64,000 bases of DNA from Candidatus Aenigmatarchaeota archaeon (GTDB lineage: Archaea; Aenigmatarchaeota; Aenigmatarchaeia; GW2011-AR5): positions 1,519-65,518 of the forward strand of contig JBAZQV010000001.1 of NCBI GenBank assembly GCA_041645025.1, read 5' to 3'. The position numbers were made by a program, and so were the translations under genes. Below, piece after piece: positions 10,305-46,812 of this stretch (the first letter of the stretch is position 1; every line of letters starts with the position of its first letter). Below the pieces are notes generated by a model. The model saw nothing but the letters and a program-made list of their open reading frames with translations. It ran no database searches and was not told the DNA's origin.

Positions 10305-10424
10305 TCCATGTTGTTATTTCTCAAGGCTTTTCTTTAATTGAATGACGCACTTCGTGCGTCTGTCGAATAAGAAAACCCTGGAAAAGAATTCGGCTTTAAC
10401 TATTTTTACTGACAAAAGACTGTC

Positions 10425-12459: not shown

Positions 12460-14322
12460 TCAGACTACTAGGAAGTATAATTTTCTCCTCTTGACCCTTC
12501 TCTCTTCCACGCGTCCTTCAGCGATGAGACGCACAAGCCTGTCCTTTGTTCTCTTGCGACCCCGGCCAATGGCTCTAACCAGTGACTGGATTGATATGCC
12601 TTCTTTTGGTATCGTTGTTATGACGAGTATGTCTATCACTTCATTTTCAAGGTCCACTATCGACCTTAGAAGTGCTGTTCTTCTCTGACGTGCCCACACC
12701 GGTAGCCTGCGCTTCTTCAGGAGCAACTTCGCGTTCAAAAGACGCAGCATGAAATCAACGCTGTTCAGTGTATAGAAATAAGTATTGACATCCTTGAGTG
12801 TTGTGTTGAGCCTATTCTGGCTTCTTGAAAGCCGATTGAGAGCAGTATGATACTTTTTCAGGTTGCTGTACTTTTCATCCAGAGAAGTTATGGTTGTGTT
12901 AACGTTCTCTATGAGACCTGTTTTTTCAGAAAGCTTGCCTATCTTGCTGTTAATTTTTTCAAGGACATCTGAATTGTCTACAGGTGCCATATTGGCGATC
13001 TTTTCATTTATCTCGCTAAGGACATCGGCGGTGGCAGAGCTGATACCGCTCATGTTCTCTAGTTGATTAAGAACACCCTTGCTATTAATGTGAACATCAT
13101 CCAATTTTTCGTCTATGTGATTCATGAATTCGGCACTTCTTACTGAAAGACCGCCAACCTTTTCCTCAATACTGTCTAGTTTTTCCGGGTTTATTTCTTT
13201 TGTCTGGAGTTTTTCTATAATTTCAGCATTCATTACTGAAATTTCTCCGATTTTCTCCTCCATGACTCCCAATTTTTTTGAGTTTGTTTCATGAAGATGG
13301 TCAAGCTTCCCGCTTATTTTTTCAATAGTATCGTTCAGTTCAGACGTGCCGCCTATTTTTTCTTCTATTGTCTCAATGAGTAATGTATTATCTGAAAGCC
13401 GATCTATTTTATTTTCGATGCCTCCGAGCTTTTCCGAGTTCGCAAAGGACAACTGGTCAAGCCTGGAATTAATATTGTCAAGTGCAACACTGGAAGAGGC
13501 AGCTGATATCTTTTCTTCTACCCTCCCCAGCGTTTCGGCGTTGCTGGCATATAACTCGCTGAGTTTTTCATCGACCTTGAGCATAATTTCTGATACGATA
13601 TCATATTTGCTTTTTATTGATGCTATGGACTCGCGTATGTTGATAATATCTTCAGAGCCGCCGGAAACCTTGTCCAGTTTTTCGTCAAGTTTGCCCATTA
13701 CGTCATTGCTGTCCATGGAGATTTCACTGAGCCTTTCATCAAGTTTTAAAATAATATCAGAAAGTTTGTTACTTCTTATTCCCAAGGAGTCTATCGATGC
13801 ATGTATTTTATCAAGCGACTCGTTATTGTTTGCAGCCAGATTTTCTATTCTCTCGTTAATTTCGGCGCCGCTTACGGACAGTTCACCCATTTTTTCATGG
13901 AGCCTGAGAGAAACTTCAGAAACAGCATCGTATTTGTTCTCAAGGGCGCTTATGGAGGTCTGTATGTCTGCCAGTATTTCTCCCGCACCTCTGGAAAGAG
14001 TATCGAGCTTTTCCTTTAGTTCAGTATTATCCCCTTCAGGAGCTTGGGATGAGAGCATTTCTATTCTTTCTATTGCATCAAGAATTATTGCGTATCTTTT
14101 GTTGACAGCGCTGATGGATGAGAGCATATCGGACAGGATATTCTTTATTTCGCTAAGAACCTCTGTATTTGCCGGCATTGACATCTTTTCTATCTTGTCC
14201 ACCAGAGCTTCAAGTCTGATTCTATAGCTGTCGCTCATTACTCTGGTTTCTATAAGTTTCACGGCTACCCTTTCATCACTGGGTAATTCCTCATCTACAC
14301 GTAGTAAAAACTCATCACTCAT
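12460..14322 (-). CDS. Large repetitive coiled-coil protein (620 aa) with a C-terminal winged-helix-like basic domain
   Basis: Many ~33-aa heptad-like repeats (xxEKLxxIENKIxxLS); C-terminus LVRAIGRGRKRTKDRLVRLIAEGRVEERRVKRRKLY. Confidence 0.55.
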   Translation of the reverse strand: MSDEFLLRVDEELPSDERVAVKLIETRVMSDSYRIRLEALVDKIEKMSMPANTEVLSEIKNILSDMLSSISAVNKRYAIILDAIERIEMLSSQAPEGDNTELKEKLDTLSRGAGEILADIQTSISALENKYDAVSEVSLRLHEKMGELSVSGAEINERIENLAANNNESLDKIHASIDSLGIRSNKLSDIILKLDERLSEISMDSNDVMGKLDEKLDKVSGGSEDIINIRESIASIKSKYDIVSEIMLKVDEKLSELYASNAETLGRVEEKISAASSSVALDNINSRLDQLSFANSEKLGGIENKIDRLSDNTLLIETIEEKIGGTSELNDTIEKISGKLDHLHETNSKKLGVMEEKIGEISVMNAEIIEKLQTKEINPEKLDSIEEKVGGLSVRSAEFMNHIDEKLDDVHINSKGVLNQLENMSGISSATADVLSEINEKIANMAPVDNSDVLEKINSKIGKLSEKTGLIENVNTTITSLDEKYSNLKKYHTALNRLSRSQNRLNTTLKDVNTYFYTLNSVDFMLRLLNAKLLLKKRRLPVWARQRRTALLRSIVDLENEVIDILVITTIPKEGISIQSLVRAIGRGRKRTKDRLVRLIAEGRVEERRVKRRKLYFLVV

Positions 14323-17908: not shown

Positions 17909-18376
17909 TTAGTATCGCTTTTTGACTATTGATTTTCTTTCAGCAGCGACTATTGGCTTGACTACCTCGACATTCTTCGGGAACTCCTTTCCGCGCAGAA
18001 GAAGGTTCTTTTCTGCTTTCTTGGCTGAAAAAGCCCTCATGAGATACTTTTCGGCCTTTTCTACATCAAATTCCTTGCAGGAAAATATGTCTATGGAAGC
18101 GAAGCGCTGGGCAGCAAATGTGTGAATAGTTATGTGGCTTTCTGCTATGAGCACAAAGGCTGATACGCCGCCTCGATCAAAGCTATCTTTTTTACCCAGC
18201 GGGTTTGATGTAAACTTATTGACGACGGGCTGGAAAATTTTGTGCATGCCTATTTTTTCAGGCAGTTTGTCCAATAAGTTGTATATAAATTTATCATCGA
18301 GAAGACGTTGTTTGTCACATCCGTACATGTCAAGTGTTAGATGTGGGCCAAAACCGACAGTTACTTTTTGTTCCAT
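17909..18376 (-). CDS. speH: S-adenosylmethionine decarboxylase proenzyme (archaeal SpeH type)
   Basis: FVLIAESHITIHTF and FASIDIFSC motifs. Confidence 0.7.
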   Translation of the reverse strand: MEQKVTVGFGPHLTLDMYGCDKQRLLDDKFIYNLLDKLPEKIGMHKIFQPVVNKFTSNPLGKKDSFDRGGVSAFVLIAESHITIHTFAAQRFASIDIFSCKEFDVEKAEKYLMRAFSAKKAEKNLLLRGKEFPKNVEVVKPIVAAERKSIVKKRY

Positions 18377-18479
18377 CTTATTATCTACATTTCCCCTTCT
18401 TTTTAGTAAGATTATTTTTTGTACGCGTCACATATTTAAAAATATAGCTTCTCTATCAAAGGGGTTTTTGAAGTTTGTT

Positions 18480-19424
18480 ATGCGCAAAAGTACTATGAAA
18501 ACCGATACCGCTGTAAAGGGCTACGATTTTTCCAAGGGCCTGGACCTGAAGAGTTTCCTTGAAGCCTATGCGACGACCGGGCTGCAGGCGTCCAACCTGA
18601 CAAAGGCTATAGAAATAGCCAAAAAGATGAGAAAGGAGAAGGTCACAGTATTTCTTGGCTACACCTCTAACATGATTTCCTCGGGCGTGCGTGAGTCCAT
18701 CCTATATCTTGTAAAAAACAAACTAGTGCATGCTATAGTAACCACGGCTGGCGGCGTAGAAGAGGATATAATAAAGTGCATCAAACCTTTCATATTGGGA
18801 GATTTTCGTCTTGACGGGGCAGCACTGCGCCGCCAGGGCATAAACAGGACAGGTAATATTCTGGTTCCCAATGACAGGTACATAGAATTTGAAAAGATAT
18901 TTACTCCATTTCTAAAGAAGCTTTTGGAAGAGCAGAAGCAAACAGGAAAGATAGCCACACCCACGGAGATTTGTAAGAGACTGGGAGAACTGGGTGATGA
19001 GACGTCTGTTCTTTACTGGGCACAGAAAAATAACATACCAGTTTTCTGCCCAGGCATAACCGATGGTTCCATGGGTGACATGATTTTCTTTTTCAAGAGC
19101 GAGAACCCGGAGTTCAAGGTTGATGTGTCTGATGATATCCACAATATAATAGACATGGTAATGGACTCAGGAAAGACGGGCGCGATAATCCTTGGCGGCT
19201 CCCTGCCAAAGCATCACATAATGAATGCTAACGGCGTTTTGGATGGTCTCAAGTATGCCATATACATAAACACTGCTACCGAAGGCGATGGATCGGACTC
19301 GGGTGCAATGCCTGAAGAAGCAAAGAGCTGGGGCAAGGCTGATTATGATGCTGATTGTGTAAAGGTTAGCATGGACGCTACGATAGCATTTCCGCTTCTT
19401 GTGGCGGGACTGGTGATTGAATGA
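18480..19424 (+). CDS. dys: Deoxyhypusine synthase, copy 1 (start trimmed to MRKSTMKT)
   Basis: 314 aa; GGSLPKHHIMNAN and NTATEGDGSDSGA motifs. Confidence 0.85.
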   Translation: MRKSTMKTDTAVKGYDFSKGLDLKSFLEAYATTGLQASNLTKAIEIAKKMRKEKVTVFLGYTSNMISSGVRESILYLVKNKLVHAIVTTAGGVEEDIIKCIKPFILGDFRLDGAALRRQGINRTGNILVPNDRYIEFEKIFTPFLKKLLEEQKQTGKIATPTEICKRLGELGDETSVLYWAQKNNIPVFCPGITDGSMGDMIFFFKSENPEFKVDVSDDIHNIIDMVMDSGKTGAIILGGSLPKHHIMNANGVLDGLKYAIYINTATEGDGSDSGAMPEEAKSWGKADYDADCVKVSMDATIAFPLLVAGLVIE

Positions 19425-20377
19425 GCAAGATGAATGAAGCTAAAGACAGCATATTCAAGGACTCCACAGAGCCGGAAGGCCTTGAAATAAAGGGCTACGA
19501 TTTTTCAAAACAACCAACCCTGAGTAAATTAATAGAAAGCTTTTACTCTACAGGATTCCAGGCTTCTCATCTGGGCAGGGCCATAGAAGTTGCAAAGAAG
19601 ATGAGAAAGGGGAATGTGACAATATTTCTTGGTTTTGGCGCAGATGCAGTTGCTTCCGGCGTCCGCGAGTCTATATCTTATCTTGTAAAAAATAAGATAG
19701 TTCATGCGCTAGTGACCACGGCCGATGGCATTGAAGCCGATGTCATAAGGACAAGGAAAGATTTTGTTCTGAATGGAAAGGGGAAACGCGGGGATAATTT
19801 TGTAGGAAATATTATGATTCCATGCGACGGGTATAAAATATTCACAGATATTCTAAACAAGACGCTTTCCGAGTTGTATGTGGAACAGAAAAAATCAGGA
19901 GAAATAGCTACACCGGGTAAAATTGCAAAAAGTCTGGGAAAGGTGTGCGATGAAACTTCTATACTGTATTGGGCACAGAAAAATAACATACCGGTTTTCT
20001 GTCCTGGCATAACTGACGGCGCCACGGGAAATATAATATCTTCATTCAAGTCAAAGAGCAGGGACTTCAAGCTGGACGTGAGTGATGATGTTGTTATTCT
20101 TGAGGACACGGTCCTGGACGCCAAAGAGACAGGCGCAATAATTCTCGGCGGTTCCCTGCCAAAGCACCATATAATGAATGCTAATATGATGCGCGAGGGC
20201 ACCAAGTACACGATTTACATTAACACAGCCATGGAAGGAGACGGCTCGGACAGTGGTGCGCTGCCAGAGGAAGCAAAGAGCTGGGGGAAAGCTGCCGCAG
20301 ATGTTGATTCGGTGAAGGTTCAGGCAGATGCCAGCATAGTTTTTCCTCTGCTGGTCGCTGGGGCTTTTGTTGACTAG
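19421..20377 (+). CDS. dys: Deoxyhypusine synthase, copy 2 (tandem paralog, overlapping stop/start)
   Basis: 318 aa; about 55-60% identical to copy 1 by eye; the same motifs are conserved. Confidence 0.85.
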   Translation: MSKMNEAKDSIFKDSTEPEGLEIKGYDFSKQPTLSKLIESFYSTGFQASHLGRAIEVAKKMRKGNVTIFLGFGADAVASGVRESISYLVKNKIVHALVTTADGIEADVIRTRKDFVLNGKGKRGDNFVGNIMIPCDGYKIFTDILNKTLSELYVEQKKSGEIATPGKIAKSLGKVCDETSILYWAQKNNIPVFCPGITDGATGNIISSFKSKSRDFKLDVSDDVVILEDTVLDAKETGAIILGGSLPKHHIMNANMMREGTKYTIYINTAMEGDGSDSGALPEEAKSWGKAAADVDSVKVQADASIVFPLLVAGAFVD

Positions 20378-22858: not shown

Positions 22859-23254
22859 TTAGTTTCTTTTTTCTTTACCAAAATCTAATATTTTTGAAAC
22901 GGCTTCTCCGCAATAATCTCTACAACCCAGCCTTTCTGATAAAAAGTCTACTGCATCCATTGCTTCTGGGAAACCTCCTATTGAAGTTCCATCCATTCTT
23001 CTTGTTCCATAACCTATGGTAAGTCCCAACACCAAAAAATCACGAAATAAAGTCTCCACCTGAGGTTGTTCGTAGTCTGGTATATCAAGAGGCCTCATGA
23101 ATATACCTCTTGGGTGGTTTAGCGCCCCGGACTTTATTCCATAGCAAAAGACATCAAGGCAGTAGCGGGAAACCTTTGCATAGATGTCTGGTCTTATTTC
23201 TCTGAACTTGTCAAGTATATCTGGCAGGTCGCGTTCGATAATGGCTTTGTACAT
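22859..23254 (-). CDS. Hypothetical protein
   Basis: 131-aa ORF. Confidence 0.4.
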   Translation of the reverse strand: MYKAIIERDLPDILDKFREIRPDIYAKVSRYCLDVFCYGIKSGALNHPRGIFMRPLDIPDYEQPQVETLFRDFLVLGLTIGYGTRRMDGTSIGGFPEAMDAVDFLSERLGCRDYCGEAVSKILDFGKEKRN

Positions 23255-23295
23255 ACAAGTGAGAATTATTGAAAAGTATTAAAAACATAATTAAC

Positions 23296-23350
23296 CCTTT
23301 TTCTTGGGAAGAAAAAGCCCTACTGGAAAAAGAACATATTATAAAAAGGA
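23296..23350 (+). promoter_or_regulatory. U-rich palindrome (CTTTTTCTTGGGAAGAAAAAG) plus BRE/TATA-like AAAAAGAACATATTATAAAAAG module
   Basis: Same module family as 1677-1735, 29327-29393 and 55401-55451. Confidence 0.4.
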
Positions 23351-23361
23351 TATCACTGCAC

Positions 23362-23727
23362 TTAATATCGTCTTCCAGTCAGGCGCACTTCGAGATTCTT
23401 CAGACGCTCGTTTATGGTCTCCGTCATGCTGCGTATAGCAGCAAGCTGGCTCTCTATGAGGTTGAGGCGGTCAATGACTTCATAACGGTCGCCGCCTCTT
23501 TCTGCTGTTTGCTCGGGAAATCTTGTGTCCACGGTGCTAAATCCCGGTGGTTCATCAAATCGCCTTATAGGCTCATCGAACGTCGGAACTTCCACAGGCT
23601 TTTCAAAACGCCTTGGCGGAAAATCCGGCTCTGGCGGTGCTAGAAGGTCTCTGCCAACTACATTTGACCTTATATCTTCTAAATCGTCATAACGTTTGTG
23701 CATCCTGTTTTTTAGCCAACTCATCAT
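23362..23727 (-). CDS. Hypothetical charged/coiled-coil protein flanked by 20-bp direct repeats
   Basis: 121 aa; perfect 20-bp direct repeats TATAAAAAGGATATCACTGC at 23340-23359 and 23761-23780. Confidence 0.4.
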   Translation of the reverse strand: MMSWLKNRMHKRYDDLEDIRSNVVGRDLLAPPEPDFPPRRFEKPVEVPTFDEPIRRFDEPPGFSTVDTRFPEQTAERGGDRYEVIDRLNLIESQLAAIRSMTETINERLKNLEVRLTGRRY

Positions 23728-23809
23728 AATTACACACTGATTATAATTCGGCTTCTGCAGTATAAAAAGGATATCACTGCTAAACTAAAACATAAGAATT
23801 CATTTTGAG

Positions 23810-24301
23810 TTATTCTTCAGCCTTGTTTATCTTGAACTTATTCAGTATAAAGTCGCGCATGTCATAGATGTTGTCCTTTCCCATTTCAAGGTAATTGCGG
23901 CGCTGCTTGTAGTAGAAAGCGAGATTGTAGGCCCACCAGAAACCCCTCTGGATGAAATTGCTGAATTCGTATTTTGTTTCCAGCGTGCCTTTTATTTCAA
24001 TAACAAACCAGCCTGACTTCTCTTTTGAGTGCTGAAAACCCTGCACCATGACGCGCAAATATGTTTTTGACCAGTTATCTTCGGTGCGTTTTCCCATCCA
24101 GACGCCGTAGAATTCGTTGGGGTCGGATGTAACATCCCATCTTATGTCTGTTTCGAGCAGGTCTTTCCCGGGTATTTTCATGATGGCTTTTATCATGTCC
24201 GGTGCCATGCTCATTATGGCAACCGGTTCCGAGCCAGTGTACTTTATTTTTATGCGGTCTGCTGGCGCTATAAGGTCGTCAATGATATTCAGTTTGCCCA
24301 T
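23810..24301 (-). CDS. Hypothetical protein, paralog A of a tandem pair
   Basis: 163 aa; shares the pattern W..Y......YYKQRRNYLEMGK with the next ORF (...YQHKRMEYLNLGK). Confidence 0.5.
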   Translation of the reverse strand: MGKLNIIDDLIAPADRIKIKYTGSEPVAIMSMAPDMIKAIMKIPGKDLLETDIRWDVTSDPNEFYGVWMGKRTEDNWSKTYLRVMVQGFQHSKEKSGWFVIEIKGTLETKYEFSNFIQRGFWWAYNLAFYYKQRRNYLEMGKDNIYDMRDFILNKFKINKAEE

Positions 24302-24356
24302 AGTATATTGTATTGCATTTACAGTATTTATAAAAACTAGCTGCTGGTTGCTTTAA

Positions 24357-24875
24357 TTACGCTGGGGTGCCTTCGCGCAGCGTTTCGCCAAAGTGCTTTA
24401 CACTGGACTCCATAGAGGTCAGCAGCTCCTTTCCCAGGTTAAGATATTCCATGCGCTTGTGCTGGTAGAACGTGTTGTGCCAGAAGCGCCTCAACATTTC
24501 GTACATGAGGTTCTGCTGCCATATGGTGTCCTGCGGATATTCTGTAATCAGTCTTGGCTTGAGCCTTATTACTGCCTTGCCCTCGCCGTTTGCTGTTGCA
24601 CCTTTTAATGAGATTTCCACGACAATATAAGAATAGACATCAAGCACCTTGTTTACTTCCCAGTCAATCTCGAATTTTTCAGATTCCTTGCCCTTCTCCC
24701 AGCTGTAGTTCTTTTCCTGCACATATGCATCGGGCACGTTGAATACTGTTCTTATGAGTTCATTCAGTTTCTTGTAGAACTGCTCGGGATTTGGCCCCAC
24801 ATAGCTGATACGAATATCCTTGATGGGTTCAAATATATAATCCCATATCAGAAGCTTTGTCCTTGCCCATACCAT
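24357..24875 (-). CDS. Hypothetical protein, paralog B of a tandem pair
   Basis: 172 aa; co-linear similarity to 23810-24301. Confidence 0.5.
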   Translation of the reverse strand: MVWARTKLLIWDYIFEPIKDIRISYVGPNPEQFYKKLNELIRTVFNVPDAYVQEKNYSWEKGKESEKFEIDWEVNKVLDVYSYIVVEISLKGATANGEGKAVIRLKPRLITEYPQDTIWQQNLMYEMLRRFWHNTFYQHKRMEYLNLGKELLTSMESSVKHFGETLREGTPA

Positions 24876-25180
24876 TCTCTACACCTGCCTAATAATTCCT
24901 CTTAATTATACTTGTCTCTTCTGTATAAAAAGAATACTATAAGATTTGTGAATTCTTTTATGCTCAAAATTGCAAAGCAATTTTGGCATGCCAGAAAGCT
25001 TTGCTTTCTTAGCATACCGGAATACATGATTGAGCAAAGCTCAATCTGTATAGGTTGAATAAAATTCAACCTTATACCACGAATAATACCACTGTTCAAA
25101 GACGGCGGTATTCCTTGTATAAATTGATTTTGTAGGCACCAAAAGCAAAGTTAAATATTGCACAAGGACAATAATGATTT

Positions 25181-25519
25181 ATGGTACTTGACATAATAGT
25201 TGCGGCGGTTCTTCTTGCATTTGGAATTCTTACTATATGGTTCTCTTTTGAAAGCGATCTGAATGACAAAAATCTTGTTCTTGTCCTCCTGATCGCCATC
25301 GCGGCTATTATCGCCGGCGGGTGGATAATAATTACAAAGCTTACTCTGGCACTTGTGCTTACAAAACTTGCCGGGCTTGTTCTTGCAGGAGTAGGACTGT
25401 TCCTCATAATCGGTTTTCCTGATGTCAATCCGGACTACCAGAGAGTGGGCATGTCAAAGGCAGGCATATTCATCGGTCTTATTCTGCTTATCATAGGCGC
25501 GTATCTGCTGTTTTTCTGA
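25181..25519 (+). CDS. Small polytopic membrane protein
   Basis: 112 aa, almost entirely hydrophobic helices. Confidence 0.45.
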   Translation: MVLDIIVAAVLLAFGILTIWFSFESDLNDKNLVLVLLIAIAAIIAGGWIIITKLTLALVLTKLAGLVLAGVGLFLIIGFPDVNPDYQRVGMSKAGIFIGLILLIIGAYLLFF

Positions 25520-25536
25520 GTAAACCAAAGACATAT

Positions 25537-25632
25537 CTATAGTAGAAGACATTAGTTTTCATACAAAATAATGTCTTCTGCATATAGCAGTGACATCATA
25601 ATATGTACGGTTATTTATGTCACATGCTATAA
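25537..25632 (+). repeat. 96-bp repeat A, left copy, two internal hairpins; inverted partner at 46717-46812
   Basis: 94/96 identity to the reverse complement of 46717-46812; stems AGAAGACATT/AATGTCTTCT and TATAGCAGTGACAT/ATGTCACATGCTATA. Confidence 0.8.
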
Positions 25633-25658
25633 GATGAACATTTTACAATAAATGTTCG

Positions 25659-25723
25659 TCTGGATCCCATCTTCTCATAAATTCATGTATTTAGCCATAT
25701 GGGTATACAAAGAAGATGTGATA
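25659..25723 (+). repeat. Repeat B copy 2
   Basis: TCTGGATCCCATCTTCTCAT ... ACAAAGAAGATGTGATA; same ends as 11878-11937 with a different loop. Confidence 0.5.
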
Positions 25724-25852
25724 AGTTTTAACCTGTTGAACTAGCCGAGTAAAGAAAACTTTATAGCCCATGAAAGAAATAACAGATATATTATACCTAT
25801 GATAACTATGAGCGAAACAGAAATTATTACTCTTTTCGCTCTGTAGAAAGGG

Positions 25853-27526
25853 ATGACATATATGAAAGAACCAAAATGGATTCTTGAGAAACTGGATCGA
25901 AATCCTCTTAGAGGTGATATTCTTAATGACGATTTGGTTAATAGAATGTCTAGAGCCGGTGCAAAATGGTTAGGTCATGCCATAGCTGCAGGGCCTTTTG
26001 AGGCACACATTTCGTTGGATTTTACAGGGTCACCAGGTTCGGTTTCGGGCATTTACTACAGCTTGTGCTTCTGGCTCCGAAAGTGGGAGTATCAGGTCCA
26101 AAAGTCTGACGAGTGGATAGAGGTTTCGCCTGTTCATGCACAATATTATCAGCTTACACAGAAGCAAAAGGAGGAACTGGAGGGGAAAATAAAACAGGGG
26201 CTTGTTTCAGTTTCACAATCAGTAGCAGACATGGAACTGCTCATGCACGACAGAAGACGCTACCATGAATTTCTTCACTATCTGGGCTATAAGACACCTG
26301 CAGAGTGGGTGAAAACTGACCAAAAAGCTGAGAAGGAACACAATCATCCGGCAGAGGAAATGGACGATGTCTGCACGGCTTCTGGCGACAGCAGGGACAA
26401 GCTGATAAAGAAGAATATAGACAACCACTCGCTGAAGGCAGTGTTCATTGACCAGGTTGATATGCATACGGGCGAGGGCATATCCATGAGAAGCATAGTC
26501 AGCCGGTGGCCTACCCTGATAACGGATTTCATCAAGATGGATGACGAGGACATGAATGCCGACAAGGTAAAGGACAAGCTGGATGTTTCAAAGGCAGAAG
26601 CGGTTATTCTCATCACAAAGAACAAGCTCTACCAGGAATGGAAAAACATATTCGGACCAGAAATAAAAAACCGCTACGTGCGGATACACGAGCTTGTAAA
26701 AGCCAGGCAGGCGTCTGTTGAGCAGTACAAGGAGTGGCTCAAGCCCTATGTTGCCAGGCACAGGCTGATACAGGAAGGCCTATCCAAAGCAGAAAGACGG
26801 GGAAGCACCACCACATCTTTCATAACAAGCGGAGGAACAGCTACTTCTTCTGCGGAGATAGTCCTATATGTCTGGAAGGACTTCATTGTTCCGGAACTCT
26901 TCAAGGGCGGAACCGAGGACATGGCAAAGATAACAATGGGGGAGCCGGGCAAACGGCAGCTTGAAGTTGACGATAAATGGACCAAGCAGAACCTCATATT
27001 TGGCAAGGAATTTGGGCTGATAAACATATATCCCTGGATAACTGAAGAATGGGTTCAGAAGCAGAAAGAAGATATGTTCAATGACGGATGGCTTACGACC
27101 CACAAACATTACTATTCATTTTTCCAGATAAAAATAAAGAAGACAGGGATTCGCATGCCAACAGGCGATGAGCTGGAGGACGGCATATTTGATGTCAACA
27201 TGTTTTTCATGACGCAGAACGTAGTTTTCTGCAAACTGCTCGAGCTCAAGGCAAAACAGCAGGAAATGGAACACCACATAGACAAGCTTCTTGGCGTCTA
27301 TAAGCCGCCTAAAGGCAGTGTGCCCCCCTATGCGGAGAAAAATGAAAGTGTTATTTCCAAGGTGCTTGACAAATTTTCCATGACATTTGAAATGGCGAAA
27401 CGCGGGCCTTATGAGCGTGATTTTGACGAGCGCCTGACAAAGGTATGCTTTGCCCGCTGCGCCGGCGAGCGCTATGCTCCTATTGTTGGCTACATAAAGA
27501 AGAAGATGGGCATGCCTGGCAGCTGA
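25853..27526 (+). CDS. Large hypothetical protein (557 aa)
   Basis: Long ORF with good coding character; no motif recognised. Confidence 0.5.
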   Translation: MTYMKEPKWILEKLDRNPLRGDILNDDLVNRMSRAGAKWLGHAIAAGPFEAHISLDFTGSPGSVSGIYYSLCFWLRKWEYQVQKSDEWIEVSPVHAQYYQLTQKQKEELEGKIKQGLVSVSQSVADMELLMHDRRRYHEFLHYLGYKTPAEWVKTDQKAEKEHNHPAEEMDDVCTASGDSRDKLIKKNIDNHSLKAVFIDQVDMHTGEGISMRSIVSRWPTLITDFIKMDDEDMNADKVKDKLDVSKAEAVILITKNKLYQEWKNIFGPEIKNRYVRIHELVKARQASVEQYKEWLKPYVARHRLIQEGLSKAERRGSTTTSFITSGGTATSSAEIVLYVWKDFIVPELFKGGTEDMAKITMGEPGKRQLEVDDKWTKQNLIFGKEFGLINIYPWITEEWVQKQKEDMFNDGWLTTHKHYYSFFQIKIKKTGIRMPTGDELEDGIFDVNMFFMTQNVVFCKLLELKAKQQEMEHHIDKLLGVYKPPKGSVPPYAEKNESVISKVLDKFSMTFEMAKRGPYERDFDERLTKVCFARCAGERYAPIVGYIKKKMGMPGS

Positions 27527-27591
27527 GTAAAAATAAGGATGGAACGCTAGGCAGGATGAAGACGACCCCGCCTCGCTCTTAGTAAAAAGAT

Positions 27592-29310
27592 ATGACGCTT
27601 CGGATAACAGGTGAAAATATGACTTATACTGTGGGTATTTCAACGGGCTTCTGGCGGGTAGCAAGAGACCCGGCGCTGCTCGGCTTGGCGCAGAAGATAG
27701 GTGGCTTGGGCGCTACGGGCGGGATACGGTTCGTGCAGCTTGATCTTGAATCTGTTGCCGAGTTCTATGAACCAGAAGTCAAAGTCCAGGTAAAGAGAAT
27801 GAAGGACAAACTAGGAATGTTGTTTGTCGGGCTTCATGGCGAGATAGGCGAGCTGATGGCCTTGGACTCTGCGGAAAAAAGGATATGGGACCAGACGCAC
27901 AGGAGACTGTGCCAGACAGCAAGATATGCCGCTGATCTCGGCTTCTTTTATGTAAACATTCACATGTCAAACAAACAGGTGATCTCCTTTACAGAGGCAC
28001 AACACCGCACACAAGGATATTTCTACCCTGTTGTCGGACCTGATGGAAAAGGGCTGCAAAGCATTATCATGGGCAATACAAAAATATATGACGAGGCAAA
28101 GAAGCATATACCCATGCATACCATAACTAGGAGCAATACGTTTAATGAAGAATATAAAAAATTACAGCAAGAAAAACTGAAACAACTTCCTGAAATTCTT
28201 GAGCACATTGCCGAACGAGAGCTAGAGCGATACCCTCCAGAACAAAGGACAGATGAATTAAAGAAGGCAATAAAAAAGCAACACGAAGATAAAGCTCGAC
28301 AAGACCTTCTAGACCAAGCATCTAATACTGCATACAGGGATGAAAGATTTCAATTTGATGTCTGGCTGAAACTGGGGAACAGCGAAGCAGAAAAATACCA
28401 GTTGGATGACGGCGAGTGGGGTGCATTTCATCTTGTGGCGCACTGGATGAAGGAAAAGGGCGATTCTTACTGGACCAACATTGCAGGCGGCAAGGATCCT
28501 CAATCACTTTATTTCGAGAATGAGAACGCGTTCTGCGCCGCTGTTGCTTCCAAGTATATAGAAGGCCATTTCACGCTGAAGGATAACCCGGCGAACAGGG
28601 AGTTCCTCGACGGCATGAGCATAAAGGAATGGTGCGAGGCAAAAAACCTGTACATGCTTACAGAGAACCCGGAATCAGGAGAAGGTGCAGAAGGCCTCTA
28701 CCGGCTTTTCCGGCCAGAACACTACTACTATACAATAAAACATATCAATTCGCCGAAAATAAAAATATGCCTGGATTTTGAACACATGGTTTCCCAGGGC
28801 CTTGACCCGGACGTTGAATTGAAAAAACTGCCTGATGACTTTGGCAAGATGGTTGTTCTCTTTCACCTAGGTCAGCCTGTTCCCTACGGCGGAACAGCAC
28901 ATATACCTGTATCACGCGGTTCGCTGGCCCAGGAGCAGATTTACCGGTGGCTTTATCTGATGAAGAAAAAAGGATGGAAAGACGGTTATGTACTATTTGA
29001 AAGAGGCGGCGGCAGGACAGGAAAAGGCGCGCTCCCTCAGGAAGTCTTTGAGGACACTGTCACGGCGCTAAGATGGATTGTGACTTTCCTGGAGCGCGAC
29101 GTGAAGCCGGAGGACCTGCCGCCCGAATTCTACGGCATTTCATTGCAGAATGAGCCGGTTTTTGCTAGGCAGCTTGTAGCAATGAGAGAGCATGCATGGG
29201 ATCCTCTTGAAGGATTGCTTAGCGTGCCTGAAGAAAAGCATACATTTCTGGGCAAGACAGCTGTTGACAAGGGCAAGGGCCAGGAATGGGAAAAGAGGAA
29301 ATTCAGATAA
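27592..29310 (+). CDS. Xylose-isomerase-like / endonuclease IV-like TIM-barrel protein with large insertions (572 aa)
   Basis: VGISTGFW...GGIRFVQL N-terminus; FYVNIHMS, ICLDFEHM and FHLGQ segments resemble AP endonuclease family 2 / sugar-phosphate isomerase metal-binding motifs. Confidence 0.4.
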   Translation: MTLRITGENMTYTVGISTGFWRVARDPALLGLAQKIGGLGATGGIRFVQLDLESVAEFYEPEVKVQVKRMKDKLGMLFVGLHGEIGELMALDSAEKRIWDQTHRRLCQTARYAADLGFFYVNIHMSNKQVISFTEAQHRTQGYFYPVVGPDGKGLQSIIMGNTKIYDEAKKHIPMHTITRSNTFNEEYKKLQQEKLKQLPEILEHIAERELERYPPEQRTDELKKAIKKQHEDKARQDLLDQASNTAYRDERFQFDVWLKLGNSEAEKYQLDDGEWGAFHLVAHWMKEKGDSYWTNIAGGKDPQSLYFENENAFCAAVASKYIEGHFTLKDNPANREFLDGMSIKEWCEAKNLYMLTENPESGEGAEGLYRLFRPEHYYYTIKHINSPKIKICLDFEHMVSQGLDPDVELKKLPDDFGKMVVLFHLGQPVPYGGTAHIPVSRGSLAQEQIYRWLYLMKKKGWKDGYVLFERGGGRTGKGALPQEVFEDTVTALRWIVTFLERDVKPEDLPPEFYGISLQNEPVFARQLVAMREHAWDPLEGLLSVPEEKHTFLGKTAVDKGKGQEWEKRKFR

Positions 29311-29326
29311 GTCTTTCTTCTTTAAG

Positions 29327-29393
29327 CTTTTCTTAGAAAGAAAACCTTGGAAAAGAACTATTATAGAAAAAGTGGCTTGCAGTCAAAAAGAAC
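29327..29393 (+). promoter_or_regulatory. U-rich palindrome plus BRE/TATA-like module (TTTTCTTAGAAAGAAAA ... AAAAGAACTATTATAGAAAAAGTGGCTTGCAGTCAAAAAGAAC)
   Basis: Immediately after the stop of the 572-aa gene; shares GTGGCTTGCRGTCAAA with the module at 1700. Confidence 0.4.
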
Positions 29394-29484
29394 TTATTAT
29401 ATTTTCGGCTCACTGACGTTCGCAGTGTGTAGAGTCTTAGCTAGCTTTTAGTTATTGTTTCAAACTACAGCAATAAAGCTTAAA

Positions 29485-29508
29485 TATATGTTTAAACATA
29501 TGTTTAAA
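29485..29508 (+). promoter_or_regulatory. Tandem palindromic candidate operator (ATATGTTTAAAC x2) abutting the VapB start
   Basis: Two direct copies of a 12-mer containing the palindrome GTTTAAAC immediately 5' of the ATG at 29510. Confidence 0.45.
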
Positions 29509-29509
29509 C

Positions 29510-29746
29510 ATGGTAAAAACAATAACGGTCACGAACGAGGCGTACGAAATGCTCCGAAAAATGAAGAGCGGGGACGAAAGCTTCAGCGAAGTCATAAAGC
29601 GCGTAGCCAAGCCGAGAGTAAACCTGAGGGATTATTTCGGCATACTTCCAAAAGAAGGTGCAGAAGAAGCCCGCAAATCTCTTAAGGAAAGAAGGAAACG
29701 AATCTCGAAATCCATAGAGGCAAGAAAAAATGTTTATTCTAGATAG
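29510..29746 (+). CDS. vapB: VapB-family antitoxin
   Basis: 78 aa; similar to the three other small proteins that precede PIN genes in this window; overlaps the PIN gene. Confidence 0.55.
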   Translation: MVKTITVTNEAYEMLRKMKSGDESFSEVIKRVAKPRVNLRDYFGILPKEGAEEARKSLKERRKRISKSIEARKNVYSR

Positions 29747-30095
29747 CTCGGCTATTATTGAAATATTTCACGGCACAGAAGCAGGAAATAAAATCGTGAT
29801 GTTTCTGGAAGGAAAAAAGTTTTCTGTGACATCGTTTAGCGTGTACGAAATATTTTTCAGGGAAAAGGAAAAAGAAAAACTGAATGAGCTAATAAGCAGC
29901 ACGGACATTTTTGTTTTTGATGAAGGCGCGGCGGAGACTGCGGTTTCTATAGAAAAGAACCTTAAGAAGTCGGGCAGCATGATAAACGATATAGATATTT
30001 TCATCGCAGCCATATGCATGCAGACGAATTCCACACTCATAACCTGCGATAACGATTTCAAAAAAATTTCCGGACTCGATGCAGCCTTTTTCTGA
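29730..30095 (+). CDS. vapC: PIN-domain ribonuclease toxin VapC
   Basis: MFILDSSAIIEI... with acidic residues in PIN positions; 121 aa. Confidence 0.7.
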   Translation: MFILDSSAIIEIFHGTEAGNKIVMFLEGKKFSVTSFSVYEIFFREKEKEKLNELISSTDIFVFDEGAAETAVSIEKNLKKSGSMINDIDIFIAAICMQTNSTLITCDNDFKKISGLDAAFF

Positions 30096-30195
30096 GCAAG
30101 CAATTAACTTTATATATACTACCATGCAGTAATACTTATAGTCCTGTAGATTGTGGTATTTATAGGATTAAAAATCAAGTTAATTGTGATTAAAA

Positions 30196-31353
30196 ATGGA
30201 AAACCCACCGAAATCTGACGCAAAACTGAAAAAGAAGCAGGAACTTTTCAGGAAAAACCAGCTGGCTCTTGCCAACAGGTTCAAGGACGAGGTTCTCAAG
30301 CAGTACAAGGGCATGGTAAAAGCGGTCGTGCTTTTCGGCTCGCTGACACGCAGCGATTTTCACGATAAAAGCGATATAGACATGCTGGTTATCATAGACG
30401 ACGTCATGGCACGGCTCACGCCGGAGATGAAGGACGATCTGGACGACAGGCTTTATGATATTGCAAAGAAAATTTCAGAGAGCATGACAGTGCAGCCTGC
30501 TTGGATGCTTTCAGAATTCTGGGACATGGCACGCATTGGTCATCCGCTTCTCTTTACCATAGTGCGCGACGGCTGGGCACTTTACGATACAGGTTTCTTC
30601 ATACCAATCCGCAAGTTGCTGGAGATGGGCAAGATACCCACGACGCTGGAAGCTGTGGAGAAGTTCATGGAGACGGCGCCGCAAAAAATCAACCGGGTTG
30701 AAACAGCCAAGTTGTATATGGTAGCCGAGGATCTATATTACTCAATGCTTAACAGCTCCCAGGCTGTTCTTATGTATATGGGGCTTAACCCACCATCACC
30801 AAAGCACACACCACTTGATGTCAAGGAACATCTGGTGGATGCAAAGCTGCTGGAGGAAAACTACTTGCAGGACCTGCAGAGCGTTATAGAATTCAGAAAA
30901 GCTGTGGAGCACAAGGAAGTCAAGGATATAACGGGCCAGCAGCTGGATGATTTCATACAAAAAGCTAAGCAGTATGTTTCTCGCATGGAACAACTTCTCC
31001 TGCAGTTGCAGAAAAAGAAGAAAGAAACCATAGTCCACAAGAACTACGAGGTTATGATAAAGGCGGCTGTAGCTGCGCTAAAGAAGATAGAAAAGCTCCC
31101 GCCGGACCCGAAGGATCTTCCGCATGCTGTAAAGGAATATTTGATAGATGCCAAACGCATTGATCCCTACTTTTCCGATGTTTTCAAGCGCGTTATAACA
31201 ATGAGGAAGATGCTGGATGAGGACAAGGTAAATGAAATACCGCAGAGGGACATAGAACTTACGCGGGAGTATGTACGCAGATTTGTCCAGGATCTGAGGC
31301 CGATAATAGAGCCACCTCCTAAGAAGTCGGTTTCTAAAAAGAAGAAAAGGTGA
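30196..31353 (+). CDS. Minimal nucleotidyltransferase (Pol beta-type) fused to a long helical HEPN-like C-terminal region
   Basis: LFGSLTRSDFHDKSDIDMLVI matches GS-x9-DxD; a C-terminal R-x4-H (RKAVEH) lies within helical repeats. Confidence 0.6.
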   Translation: MENPPKSDAKLKKKQELFRKNQLALANRFKDEVLKQYKGMVKAVVLFGSLTRSDFHDKSDIDMLVIIDDVMARLTPEMKDDLDDRLYDIAKKISESMTVQPAWMLSEFWDMARIGHPLLFTIVRDGWALYDTGFFIPIRKLLEMGKIPTTLEAVEKFMETAPQKINRVETAKLYMVAEDLYYSMLNSSQAVLMYMGLNPPSPKHTPLDVKEHLVDAKLLEENYLQDLQSVIEFRKAVEHKEVKDITGQQLDDFIQKAKQYVSRMEQLLLQLQKKKKETIVHKNYEVMIKAAVAALKKIEKLPPDPKDLPHAVKEYLIDAKRIDPYFSDVFKRVITMRKMLDEDKVNEIPQRDIELTREYVRRFVQDLRPIIEPPPKKSVSKKKKR

Positions 31354-31672: not shown

Positions 31673-32134
31673 AAGCTTTTACTTTTAAGTAATAACAAGG
31701 TTTAACTATGTCAATGAAAATAATAAAACACAGCCCTTTAACATTCAGACATGACGACGGCACCACAAGAATTTTTAGTGGTTATTCGCTGAATGTGCAT
31801 CCTCACGGTGCTGACGTTTATTGCGACGGAAGGCCAACAGATATGTGCTTTGGCGAACATGCGGACGTAGGTAATATTTATGGTGCTGTTGTGGAAGATA
31901 CACGTAAAAAGGTGAAATAAAAATGGGATATGAATTTCATGTGCACGGACTGTGGGTTCTCGGAGCGCTGTCGTTTTTTGTAGGCACGCTAATAGCAGGA
32001 AACCTGGAATGGGTTGAGGGCACGACAAATGCTTCCTTCATACTCTCGGTGATAATTGCATTCCTGTTCATATTGTTTGCAGGCGCACTGTGGATTTCTG
32101 CAGCTGTTAATGCAAGACAGGAACAAAGATAAAT

Positions 32135-32968
32135 ATGCCAACACAAGCCGAAGTTTCCATAGGCAGAAAATTTGATGTGCCAAAATCAGCTTCTGTTTAT
32201 CCGTTAATAGGCAAGGCATACACAAGCCCTTCTCATTCTTTTTCATGTTCTCCAACACTGGTCAGAACTGACAAGAACTATTATGATTCTCTTCAGGCAC
32301 TCGCAGCGATGATAGAACGAGGCGAGCTGTCAGCAGACACAAGATTCATGACACAGGCAGAAGGTCTTGGCATAGAGAATTCTTACAAGAGACAGGGCAA
32401 AGACCCAAGAAAAGCGGATGAGTTCAGGGATTATTTCGCTAAAAACAGGGACAAAGTTTATTTGTGGGAATGGACATCAACAGGTCTGCGTGTTCCAAAA
32501 GGCTGGGAAAAAGGGCGAGTTGACAGCGATGGCAAATATCCAAGAATTATTATCGAGACTGATATTCACAAAGCCATAGAGTTACTGAGGGGCGGGGCTA
32601 TATGGCAAGACATCGGAGACAGCCTGAACAGAGCAGTCGGGGAACTACGGGTTCCTTCAGGCGGCGGAAAAGTCATAGTTGAATCGGACGAGGTATTTGG
32701 CATACCGACAGAAGCAAGAGATATAGCATTCCCTCACGAAGGTTATCATTCTCACTGGCATTTCAACGCAGCACCAGAATTGGATACAGCATCAGGCCAA
32801 TATGACGTTGCTGTGTTACGCGGGGGCTACTGGCGTCGCGACGAGAGGTGCCTGAACGTCGATGCGGACTACAGGCGCTGGGACGCGGGCTCGGCCGATG
32901 GCTTCCGTCCAGTTCGGGGTTCGGTTCCAGAAATTGATGTTTTTAGATTAGTGCGAGAACAGAGATAG
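32135..32968 (+). CDS. Hypothetical protein
   Basis: 277-aa ORF; no motif recognised. Confidence 0.4.
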   Translation: MPTQAEVSIGRKFDVPKSASVYPLIGKAYTSPSHSFSCSPTLVRTDKNYYDSLQALAAMIERGELSADTRFMTQAEGLGIENSYKRQGKDPRKADEFRDYFAKNRDKVYLWEWTSTGLRVPKGWEKGRVDSDGKYPRIIIETDIHKAIELLRGGAIWQDIGDSLNRAVGELRVPSGGGKVIVESDEVFGIPTEARDIAFPHEGYHSHWHFNAAPELDTASGQYDVAVLRGGYWRRDERCLNVDADYRRWDAGSADGFRPVRGSVPEIDVFRLVREQR

Positions 32969-33344
32969 GCATGATACGCATCAAAGCTGTGATACTTACA
33001 GCAGCTGCTTATGTATCGACGATTGGAATTCTTTCTTACAATACAATGAGTAAGCCATCGTATCCCGTTGCTTCGGTTTCTCAGTCCGACTCGAGAAAAC
33101 CGCCAAGCTTTTTGATTTACAGCAGAGCTTGCGATGGAAAATACGACGGAGTCAGACAGCTTGACGCAGGCACGCTGATGGATCACCCTTTTTTCGAGCC
33201 GCTTGCCGTCAAGGATGCTGCTGCGGAAGCAATAGGAGCAATCGACCAGCTGAATCTTGGCGTGAAATACGATGTATTTTTTCAGAGATGCAGGGCACAG
33301 CCAAACACAAAATTAAGAGAAATATAAAACCGAATTTTTATCAA

Positions 33345-33920
33345 TCAGGCAGCTACGACTTTCTTTTCATCAACGACTTCTGTTCGGCGGATTTCTATGC
33401 TGCCTACAGGGTAAACTTTGCTGCAGTCTTTTTTCAGCTTGTACTGCAGGTCACCGGTTATCACAGCATTAATGAATTCGTCAAGGTTCATTTTTTTTGC
33501 AGCCTCTCCTATGATGTCTATGGCAGTCTTGCGCGTATCGTTCTTGGTCGAGCTGCCGACGCGCTTTATCAGCATGAAAACAGTCTTGACACGGACCTTT
33601 ACGCCGTCCTTGGTTACCACGTCCTGAACTGCATCAACACGGCGACCGTGTCGCTGAACCATCCTGTATATGCGTTCACGCATACATTCATGGCCTACAA
33701 GTTTTGTGTGGGCTATGTGACCGTCTATTGAGTCTATCCTGACCTTTATTTTTACGTAGAATTTTGAGTAATTTCTTGAAATTTCAATCAGACTTACGTT
33801 AAGGGTTCTTCCCATCAGTTGCCTTGGATCGGCAGCCAGCGTTTCGCCTATTGATTTGCCGCCGAACATCTCGGGTGCCATTACTTCGTACCATTGTTTT
33901 TTTACTGCCATAATTATCAC
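33345..33920 (-). CDS. rps3ae: 30S ribosomal protein S3Ae (eS1)
   Basis: MAVKKQWYEVMAPEMFGG... is a typical S3Ae N-terminus. Confidence 0.85.
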   Translation of the reverse strand: MIIMAVKKQWYEVMAPEMFGGKSIGETLAADPRQLMGRTLNVSLIEISRNYSKFYVKIKVRIDSIDGHIAHTKLVGHECMRERIYRMVQRHGRRVDAVQDVVTKDGVKVRVKTVFMLIKRVGSSTKNDTRKTAIDIIGEAAKKMNLDEFINAVITGDLQYKLKKDCSKVYPVGSIEIRRTEVVDEKKVVAA

Positions 33921-46716: not shown

Positions 46717-46812
46717 TTATAGCATGTGACATAAATAACCGTACATATTATGATGTCACTGCTATATGCAGAAGACATTATTTTGTACAAAAACTAATGT
46801 CTTCTACTATAG
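46717..46812 (-). repeat. 96-bp repeat A, right copy (inverted relative to 25537-25632)
   Basis: Reverse complement is 94/96 identical to 25537-25632. Confidence 0.8.

Follow-up and report, generated by a model that had tools for sequence, protein, structure and literature searches.

In this study, we analysed a 64,000-nt stretch of DNA (the window) from Candidatus Aenigmatarchaeota archaeon (GenBank assembly GCA_041645025.1, contig JBAZQV010000001.1) and followed up a block of genes within it (22859-29310) that a model, working from the letters alone, had picked out as a plausible undescribed system (the sequence-only reading). The block makes up the core of a vertically inherited, Aenigmarchaeota-specific module of two divergently transcribed arms, which usually takes in a nucleotidyltransferase gene beyond the downstream end of the block and is not mobile. 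Its genes are uncharacterised and co-conserved, so the expectation of an undescribed system was borne out. The block proteins are labelled 'hypothetical' in every public source, and the literature searched held no published description of this gene cluster. No known kind of system corresponds to the module as a whole; its TIM-barrel protein (TIM563, here TIM) and its nucleotidyltransferase (NTase385) are new variants of known superfamilies, and these two domains are the only parts that resemble anything characterised. We tentatively propose that the products come together at the membrane in a multiprotein assembly that includes a metal-dependent TIM-barrel enzyme and may handle lipids derived from the host, a chain that taken whole we regard as quite possible, if on balance doubtful.

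A pattern-based scan of one genome per GTDB species recovered at least 67 loci, all of them from Aenigmatarchaeota or from unclassified archaeal metagenome-assembled genomes (MAGs), save two that their submitters had labelled Woesearchaeota and Nanoarchaeota. Neither the scan of species representatives nor the homologue searches found the module in any other phylum. The recurring order is p121, p163 and p172 on one strand and a small transmembrane (TM) protein, p557, TIM and a fused nucleotidyltransferase-HEPN protein on the other (Table 1); p121, the first gene of its arm by coordinate, is the last in order of transcription. The module is embedded in a constant housekeeping context of deoxyhypusine synthase (DHS), YchF, a KH protein, S3Ae and DNA ligase, and the fact that this same neighbourhood holds throughout the whole phylum indicates that inheritance has been vertical. 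Linkage was counted by tblastn in loci with enough flanking DNA, all counts being lower bounds: p557 was linked to p172 in 40 of 45 loci, to p163 in 39 of 45, to p121 in 27 of 45 and to NTase385 in 28 of 36, and the TIM gene lay downstream of p557 in 42 of 50 (84%). The arrangement is kept in the most divergent lineages (loci L004 and L005), and the adjacency of p557 to the arm bearing the p163/p172 paralogues survives inversions and relocations in L016, L020, L030, L034, L040, L071 and L072. In L072, an adjacent 170-aa open reading frame (ORF) missed by tblastn belongs to the p172 family (hhalign probability 97.8%, E = 8.7e-13); the p172 match in L071 is weak (tblastn, 24% identity). The checks suggested along with the sequence-only reading, namely neighbourhood conservation in relatives and co-occurrence of the p557-TIM pair elsewhere, thus both came out in its favour, and what we found was not a set of ordinary metabolic folds lacking co-conservation: the genes are co-conserved and p557 has no ordinary metabolic fold.

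Two observations on the p557-TIM pair deserve mention. A 417-aa protein with faint winged-helix (TrmB/HTH_24) matches lies between p557 and TIM in L002 (9605-10858) and L003 (2062-3315). One MAG (ERP125453_co1_377) carries a p557-TIM pair on each of two contigs (L017 and L027; 55% and 54% identity to the window), which points to duplication of the module or else to a mixed bin.

Table 1. Features of the module and its immediate surroundings (window coordinates)
Feature	Position	Strand	Description
p131	22859-23254	-	Narrow-lineage ORF outside the conserved module
Repeat copy 1, GCAGTGATATCCTTTTTATA	23340-23359	-	BRE/TATA-like, upstream of p131
p121	23362-23727	-	Disordered N-terminal half and conserved C-terminal coiled coil
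Repeat copy 2	23761-23780	-	Precedes the p121 start codon by about 30 nt
p163	23810-24301	-	Paralogue of p172; aromatic and basic C-terminal helix (GFWWAYNLAFYYKQRRNY)
p172	24357-24875	-	Most conserved small subunit; predicted helix-grip-like beta-sheet and 46-residue C-terminal helix
tm112	25181-25519	+	112 aa with four TM helices predicted; opens the plus-strand arm
Third GCAGTGAYATC in the block, followed by ATAATAT	25587-25597	+	Candidate p557 promoter in the 333-nt spacer
p557	25853-27526	+	557 aa; predicted beta-sheet base, two long helices and motif-bearing helical segment
TIM563	27619-29310	+	563 aa (572 aa for the ORF from 27592); PF01261 barrel protein with insertion
VapB-VapC pair	29510-30095	+	PF02697 and PIN; insertion outside the module
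NTase385	30196-31353	+	Last gene of the plus-strand arm, beyond the 22859-29310 block

Several observations weigh against treating the linked genes as one system. TIM and NTase385 lie apart from p557 in L002, L030, L039, L050, L071 and L072, and in the clade of L052, L054, L056 and L060 p557 stands alone beside DUF655 and RNA polymerase A genes; candidates for 'displaced' partners in the exception loci proved to be nothing but ordinary neighbours, namely DNA ligase, arginyl-tRNA synthetase (ArgRS), RNA polymerase A, DUF655 and TIP49. YchF, DHS and the KH protein are also syntenic phylum-wide, though plainly unrelated housekeeping genes, and since synteny takes in such genes too, adjacency is weak evidence on its own. 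There is a real, if rather doubtful, possibility that the genes are lineage-specific, functionally unrelated neighbours held together by the rigid gene order of the region. TIM would then be a soluble sugar/polyol isomerase, epimerase or dehydratase, the nucleotidyltransferase-HEPN protein a separate essential enzyme, and only p163, p172, p121, p557 and the TM protein, or a subset of them, would cooperate. This explanation gains from the reach of the synteny, which extends to S3Ae and DNA ligase, from the detachment of TIM and NTase385 in several loci, from intergenic gaps of 13-185 nt that allow separate promoters, and from the JGI name of the TIM orthologues ('sugar phosphate isomerase/epimerase') and the closeness of their C-terminal half to D-tagatose 3-epimerase. 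It has to contend with the one narrow phyletic range that all the families share, with the retention of TIM after p557 in the great majority of loci, the deepest branches (L004 and L005) included, and with a ~210-aa insertion and conserved tail of TIM that occur in no characterised isomerase. The degree of conservation bears on the question as well. In the same loci, identity was 57-98% for p172 (outside the most divergent clades) and 70-94% for NTase385, against 40-88% for YchF and 22-74% for DHS. That p172 and NTase385 are more conserved than YchF and DHS, with conservation spread over most of p172 as expected of a subunit with many contacts, supports the proposed assembly.

The sequence-only reading had suggested a nucleic-acid-targeting or stress-related system bounded by repeats and followed by toxin-antitoxin (TA) genes. 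A horizontally acquired defence or stress island of this kind would be in keeping with the unannotated proteins and with the TA genes, which are indeed present directly downstream: VapB matched PF02697 (E = 3.4e-18) and VapC the PIN family PF01850 (E = 1.2e-12), and the two genes overlap by 17 nt, which identifies them as VapBC. Their link to the block did not stand. VapBC is absent from all related loci; L006 carries at the same spot (10409-11089) a different two-ORF cassette (93 and 63 aa) on the opposite strand, which we read from its sequence as putatively RelE/ParE-like, and L007 (about 3800-3988) has neither an insert nor room for one between TIM and NTase385. Because L006 has a different cassette there and L007 none, VapBC is an independent, lineage-specific insertion, and the intergenic spot between the TIM and NTase385 genes (29311-30195 in the window) is a TA insertion hotspot. 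Seven block proteins gave no match in PADLOC-DB at E values up to 0.1, and PHROGs gave none for the block proteins. The block shows no bounding repeats, no integrase and no shift in composition (GC is 0.40-0.48, the same as in the rest of the window, and composition is even throughout); it sits at the same locus phylum-wide among housekeeping genes, its sequences are highly conserved, and the TA cassette differs between close relatives. On these grounds we consider the island very improbable.

The largest protein of the module, p557, is without a name in any of its 344 homologues, which show 43-90% identity among the best 120 listed and come nearly all from MAGs of Aenigmarchaeota or of unclassified archaea. 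An exhaustive profile search of 1.84 billion representatives returned 237 clusters at 50% identity, and the distant cluster members scanned carried no Pfam domains. Among 116 aligned sequences, 42 positions are invariant, seven of them Trp. The AlphaFold2 (AF2) model made from this alignment has a mean predicted local distance difference test (pLDDT) score of 88.7 and a predicted template-modelling (pTM) score of 0.82. It predicts a sheet whose five long strands come from widely separated regions of the protein (52-59, 81-91, 330-344, 420-434 and 440-454) and two very long helices (96-143, 48 residues; 247-305, 59 residues) that flank a helical segment (149-243) bearing the most conserved motif of the protein, FIDQVDxHTGEGISMRSIVSRWPTLIxDF; a 'base, stalk and head' shape may be read from this order of elements. 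Foldseek revealed no analogue of p557 in the PDB (best E = 0.43) or in BFVD (best E = 0.012, TM-score about 0.1), the BFVD matches being non-significant and confined to maturation proteins of single-stranded RNA phages. Being confidently modelled and without a detectable structural analogue, p557 is a candidate new fold. A reading of its H...HD...D residues as an HD phosphohydrolase was dropped, as a single unbroken predicted helix holds both H95 and H132/D133, some 37 residues from each other; p557 also gave no Pfam HD match.

The sequence-only reading was right that the four consecutive minus-strand ORFs (131, 121, 163 and 172 aa; 22859-24875) are real and without a family above threshold, and also that p163 and p172 are a pair: they are true paralogues (BLASTP, 25% identity over 158 aa, E = 9e-12), the match including the helix with FYxxKRxxYLxxGK. 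More broadly, p131, p121, p163, p172, tm112 and p557 gave no meaningful match in Pfam, NCBIfam, PADLOC or PHROG and none among PDB sequences. In p121, conservation is limited to the C-terminal helix (about residues 80-118) among 32 orthologues. p131 is missing from all 67 related loci, L006 (90% identity) included, and recurs in only one other close MAG; judged by this distribution it is a lineage-specific insertion into a conserved frame and not part of the module.

The 219 homologues of p172, with 61-98% identity among the best 120 listed, are nearly all from MAGs labelled Aenigmarchaeota or unclassified archaeon, and the conserved residues cover most of the protein. Its AF2 model (pLDDT 83.4, pTM 0.74) has the order beta-beta-alpha-beta-beta-beta-beta followed by a 46-residue helix, that is, a predicted antiparallel sheet of long strands, a short helix and a long C-terminal helix, as in the helix-grip (SRPBCC) fold. 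Most of the top 50 Foldseek matches were SRPBCC proteins (CoxG, 2ns9, E = 4e-4; PYL, PR-10, START and Ups1), with a Foldseek probability of up to 1.0 at low TM-score. As a class, SRPBCC helix-grip proteins take up hydrophobic ligands or hold enzymes at membranes, and CoxG tethers an enzyme to the membrane, which by analogy would parallel the role that we propose for p163/p172. A number of points tell against this likeness. The SRPBCC matches are marginal (E = 4e-4 to 1e-2, TM-score 0.2-0.41, root-mean-square deviation above 10 A), DcrB and SecB score like SRPBCC members against the p172 model, p163 and p172 have no Pfam or NCBIfam match to START, Bet_v_1, Polyketide_cyc, AHSA1 or CoxG, and a p172 profile search of PDB sequences returned nothing relevant. 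Unlike SRPBCC proteins, moreover, p172 has a C-terminal helix of about twice the usual length, belongs to a conserved paralogue pair and is conserved over its whole surface. The fold of p172 is thus predicted to be marginally helix-grip-like, and p163/p172 are not classed as SRPBCC members. The idea that p163 and p172 are ribosomal or hibernation factors was also dropped: their pI is near neutral, and the Sri family consists of different proteins.

The sub-threshold PDB matches of the p557 model fall in the same fold class as those of p172 (SRPBCC), and the order of the p557 core (beta-alpha-beta, insertion, beta, insertion, beta-beta-alpha) mirrors that of p172. Homology between p557 and p163/p172 was rejected as evidence and kept as a lead, profile comparisons giving E = 0.036-0.09 even with the insertions excised; the sole local match (ISLDFTGSP with IRISYVGPN) lies on the topologically equivalent strand. 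We rate it as rather improbable that p557, p163 and p172 are three diverged helix-grip copies, p557 with two large insertions, which together with a small membrane anchor would make up a lipid-handling membrane machine of a hitherto unknown kind, coupled to a metal-dependent TIM phosphoesterase and the nucleotidyltransferase.

Evidence of a membrane connection comes from the plus-strand arm. The small membrane protein noted at first reading is genuine, and tm112 has a weak, sub-threshold DUF308 match. In 44 of 56 loci the p557 gene is immediately preceded by a small ORF (47-141 aa) with two to four predicted TM segments, which keeps this place even when its sequence can no longer be recognised. 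In the clade of L061, L063, L064, L065 and L067, two tandem 2-TM ORFs (47-54 aa) replace the single 4-TM ORF of about 110 aa, which reflects splitting or fusion of the membrane component. In seven of the 56 loci p557 itself begins with a predicted N-terminal TM helix. The notion that this helix signals a fusion of the TM protein to p557 was dropped, since the separate TM gene is kept in six of the seven lineages concerned. The conserved membrane partner and the TM helix of p557 in some lineages suggest a role at the membrane and speak against one in nucleic-acid targeting. Two negative findings run the other way: p163, p172 and TIM carry no signal peptide or TM segment, and no module protein resembles a known lipid enzyme or transporter. 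As an observation in its own right, a 69-aa protein with two TM segments is encoded downstream of NTase385 (31923-32132, +). It is conserved in some 25 related loci (55-99% identity) and is a candidate additional member of the module.

Some of these features may also describe a structure. Conservation of the whole p172 surface would be no less expected of a structural polymer than of a ligand carrier, which is a further point against a lipid-handling role. In such a cytoskeletal or membrane-coat polymer, p163/p172, with p121, would assemble into a polymer on the membrane by way of their long helices, joined there by p557 and the TM protein, and would serve cell shape, division, vesicle formation or a host-contact site, with no small-molecule ligand. 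The extreme conservation of p172 over its whole length (shown by the identity among its best 120 homologues), the long helices in every soluble subunit, the presence of a membrane partner and a paralogue pair suggestive of a heteromeric repeat unit are all consistent with it. None of the proteins, however, is like a known archaeal cytoskeletal or ESCRT/Cdv/SepF family, the module contains no NTPase, a lack that also counts against the assembly we favour, and the polymer leaves the associated enzyme genes unexplained. We judge the polymer unlikely.

The TIM protein, described at first reading as an AP endonuclease 2/isomerase-like barrel of double the usual length, matched PF01261 (AP_endonuc_2) in two stretches with 40.6 bits (E = 3.2e-10), above the gathering threshold of 31.1 bits, and the same family is precomputed for most of its orthologues. 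Both it and p557 were confirmed as real ORFs, as had been claimed for this pair; the claimed 66-bp gap between them was not, because the orthologues and the NCBI record start at Met10 (27619), leaving 92 nt. All 92 TIM homologues come from Aenigmarchaeota-type MAGs, and one Candidatus Aenigmatarchaeota MAG (locus tags WC613_00180-00210) encodes a protein 100% identical to TIM. In 43 sequences no variation is seen at H82, H124, E358, D395, E397, H425, H437 and E470, and H398 is nearly invariant; among the invariant residues is the full expected metal-site set (E358, D395, H425 and E470), so that metal binding is predicted. TIM matches the HMM of a superfamily that comprises endonuclease IV, D-tagatose/psicose 3-epimerases, IolE/IolI and hydroxypyruvate isomerase, and its invariant residues E358, D395/H398, H425 and E470 stand at the expected barrel positions. 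It differs from the characterised members in being about twice as long and in its confinement to one phylum. An insertion of ~210 aa separates barrel segments three and four and comprises a charged helical arm, which varies, and a subdomain that is conserved; at the C-terminus a basic extension of ~90 aa, also conserved, ends in EWEKRKFR. No NCBIfam subfamily model, that of Nfo included, matched it. From these sequence comparisons, TIM is a PF01261 superfamily member outside every characterised subfamily.

The chemistry of TIM admits two readings. When p557, p172 and TIM were compared with PDB sequences, both singly and in profile form, the result was noise save for weak links of TIM: the N-terminal half of its profile aligned best with Thermotoga endonuclease IV (E = 0.06-0.14, below significance) and the C-terminal half with D-tagatose 3-epimerase (also below significance). 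CIDFEH and FHLG of TIM align with D179/H182 and H216 of E. coli Nfo, weakly and against an approximate Nfo sequence, and D395, H398 and H425 align, also weakly, with the DxxH...H motif of D-tagatose 3-epimerase. H82, H124, H398, H425 and H437 are conserved, an equivalent of Nfo D229 is apparently absent, and the register of H82 is ambiguous. Removing the insertion and comparing profiles, with the aim of choosing between the two, gave one short local alignment with motifs common to both classes, so that TIM may be a hydrolase or an isomerase.

These links to endonuclease IV are the starting point for a DNA/RNA processing or repair module, in which TIM would be an Endo IV-type AP endonuclease or phosphodiesterase, the nucleotidyltransferase-HEPN protein would add to or cleave nucleic acid, and the other proteins would be accessory. 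The match of the N-terminal half, the alignment with the Nfo residues and several invariant His in the family agree with this, as do the invariant HEPN-type Rx4H of the nucleotidyltransferase and an ATP-dependent DNA ligase nearby in many loci. Given that the Endo IV links are all sub-threshold, that the aligned motifs are common to sugar epimerases, that the NCBIfam Nfo model gave no match, that the nucleotidyltransferase is of the minimal ANT/MNT type and not a polymerase, and that a conserved membrane component and TM-anchored p557 variants are hard to reconcile with repair, we hold a repair module to be quite unlikely.

NTase385 matched PF01909 of the Pol-beta nucleotidyltransferase superfamily (E = 4.5e-8), with HepT-like matches below threshold. 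The catalytic domain is fused to HEPN-like helical domains in a single polypeptide of 385-430 aa among orthologues, and its GS...DxD and RKxxEHK (HEPN Rx4H) motifs are invariant or nearly so in 37 of them. The identity range given above holds for most of the phylum and falls to 42-63% in the most divergent clades; as a separate observation, NTase385 is the most conserved protein of the neighbourhood, above YchF and DHS. The nearest PDB entries are ANT(3'')/KNTase (E = 0.007-0.07), the MntA model scored 28 bits against a cut-off of 60, and all other named-family scores were also far below their cut-offs. NTase385 resembles ANT/KNTase and MNT-HEPN (HepT/MntA) proteins in its GS...DxD catalytic motif and in its HEPN-like domains with Rx4H. 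Unlike the type VII HepT/MntA pairs, it is one fused ORF, inherited vertically, and neither mobile nor variable; a HepT-MntA toxin-antitoxin reading was dropped on account of the fusion, the sub-cut-off scores and the vertical inheritance at 70-94% identity. As an essential but unnamed enzyme, NTase385 deserves study in its own right.

Taking these data together, the assembly that we tentatively favour would be built as follows. The module products would form one membrane-associated assembly at the cytoplasmic face. The small TM protein or, in some lineages, the N-terminal TM helix of p557 itself would fasten p557 to the membrane, and p557 would serve as an alpha/beta scaffold whose two very long helices carry the segment with the invariant DQVDxHTGEG...RWPTLIxDF. 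Docking would take place through the long C-terminal helices of p121 and of the helix-grip-like p163/p172 pair, a probable heterodimer, and the TIM metalloenzyme, possibly with NTase385, would supply the chemistry on the ligand of the assembly. That ligand would most likely be a host-derived membrane lipid or another lipid-linked phospho-compound, which the module would bind, insert or remodel. The placement at the membrane is proposed because of the small TM ORF beside p557, the TM helix of p557 itself and the aromatic and basic C-terminal helices of p163/p172. A lipid ligand is suggested because of the helix-grip-like fold, the membrane link and the report that Aenigmarchaeota are without membrane-isoprenoid synthesis and an electron-transport chain (PMC8407114); this step, drawn by analogy, is the most speculative of the chain.

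The noncoding parts of the block were also inspected. The repeats said to bound it do not do so: the sole exact repeat between 21.5 and 32.5 kb, a 20-nt sequence (GCAGTGATATCCTTTTTATA on the coding, minus strand), has both copies inside the block, and the 'repeats A and B' of the sequence-only reading could not be identified, the other repeats in this interval being all short and imperfect. Because its copies sit just upstream of p131 and p121, the 20-nt repeat is best read as a duplicated BRE/TATA-type promoter (BRE, B recognition element) within the block, with no boundary role. The core GCAGTGAYATC occurs as four exact copies in the window, three of them inside the block (23349-23359 and 23770-23780, both on the minus strand, and the copy listed in Table 1) and the fourth at 46752-46762 (-). 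With up to one mismatch there are six matches against 1.68 expected, a number reached in none of 100 shuffles. Each exact copy is directly followed by an A/T-rich, TATA-like run, and the motif is always upstream of a gene. It was absent from the related genomes and loci compared; a regulatory element common to the module was dropped for that reason, and GCAGTGAYATC may be a genome-specific promoter or operator element. Noncoding RNA in the long spacers was likewise dropped as a candidate, searches of all 64 kb, these spacers included, having returned no tRNA gene and no Rfam family at the gathering threshold.

The remainder of the window consists of core housekeeping genes: ArgRS, two deoxyhypusine synthases, YchF, the KH protein, S3Ae, DNA ligase, GlmS, TFB and Nre. 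The two deoxyhypusine synthase genes are in tandem (18132-19424 and 19421-20377, +; 59% identity, E = 5e-130), the first with an N-terminal extension of about 115 aa; the related locus inspected (L001) has one annotated gene only, at the locus edge. A 147-aa ORF (33288-33731, +) lies antisense to the S3Ae gene (33345-33920, -; PF01015, E = 4e-51), and its apparent tblastn conservation is an antisense artefact. Two further proteins, p277 and p118 (32135-33327, +), gave no family match and are missing from the syntenic loci of relatives; like p131, they are lineage-specific insertions. A 620-aa ORF (12460-14322, -) gave only sub-threshold coiled-coil-type Pfam matches, and a 783-aa ORF (53042-55393, +) only a marginal DUF3106 match just above the cut-off.

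Previous work described a set of co-occurring, Aenigmarchaeota-specific families, Module 128, as 'completely lacking functional predictions' (Castelle et al., 2021; PMC8204110). The families of the block fit this description and probably belong to Module 128. The modules of Castelle et al. (2021) are defined by presence or absence across genomes, and the paper does not describe the gene cluster, the structures or the membrane link reported here.

In summary, every sampled Aenigmarchaeota lineage keeps about seven genes, or some 2,000 codons, of this module in spite of the tiny genomes of DPANN archaea, and two of its proteins are more strongly constrained than such universal proteins as YchF. 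Its retention in tiny genomes under such constraint indicates that the module is central to the biology of an uncultured phylum. Lineage-specific uncharacterised proteins are to be expected in DPANN genomes, and the function given here to the module is a proposal; even with another function, the work provides a testable set of co-inherited proteins and removes the false lead of a defence island. If the module handles host lipids or forms a membrane scaffold, it would bear on how these symbionts come by an envelope that they cannot make themselves. If the lipid proposal is true, a lipid-auxotrophic DPANN archaeon would take in or remodel the lipids of its host, and the module would be a phylum-specific answer to building a membrane without lipid synthesis.

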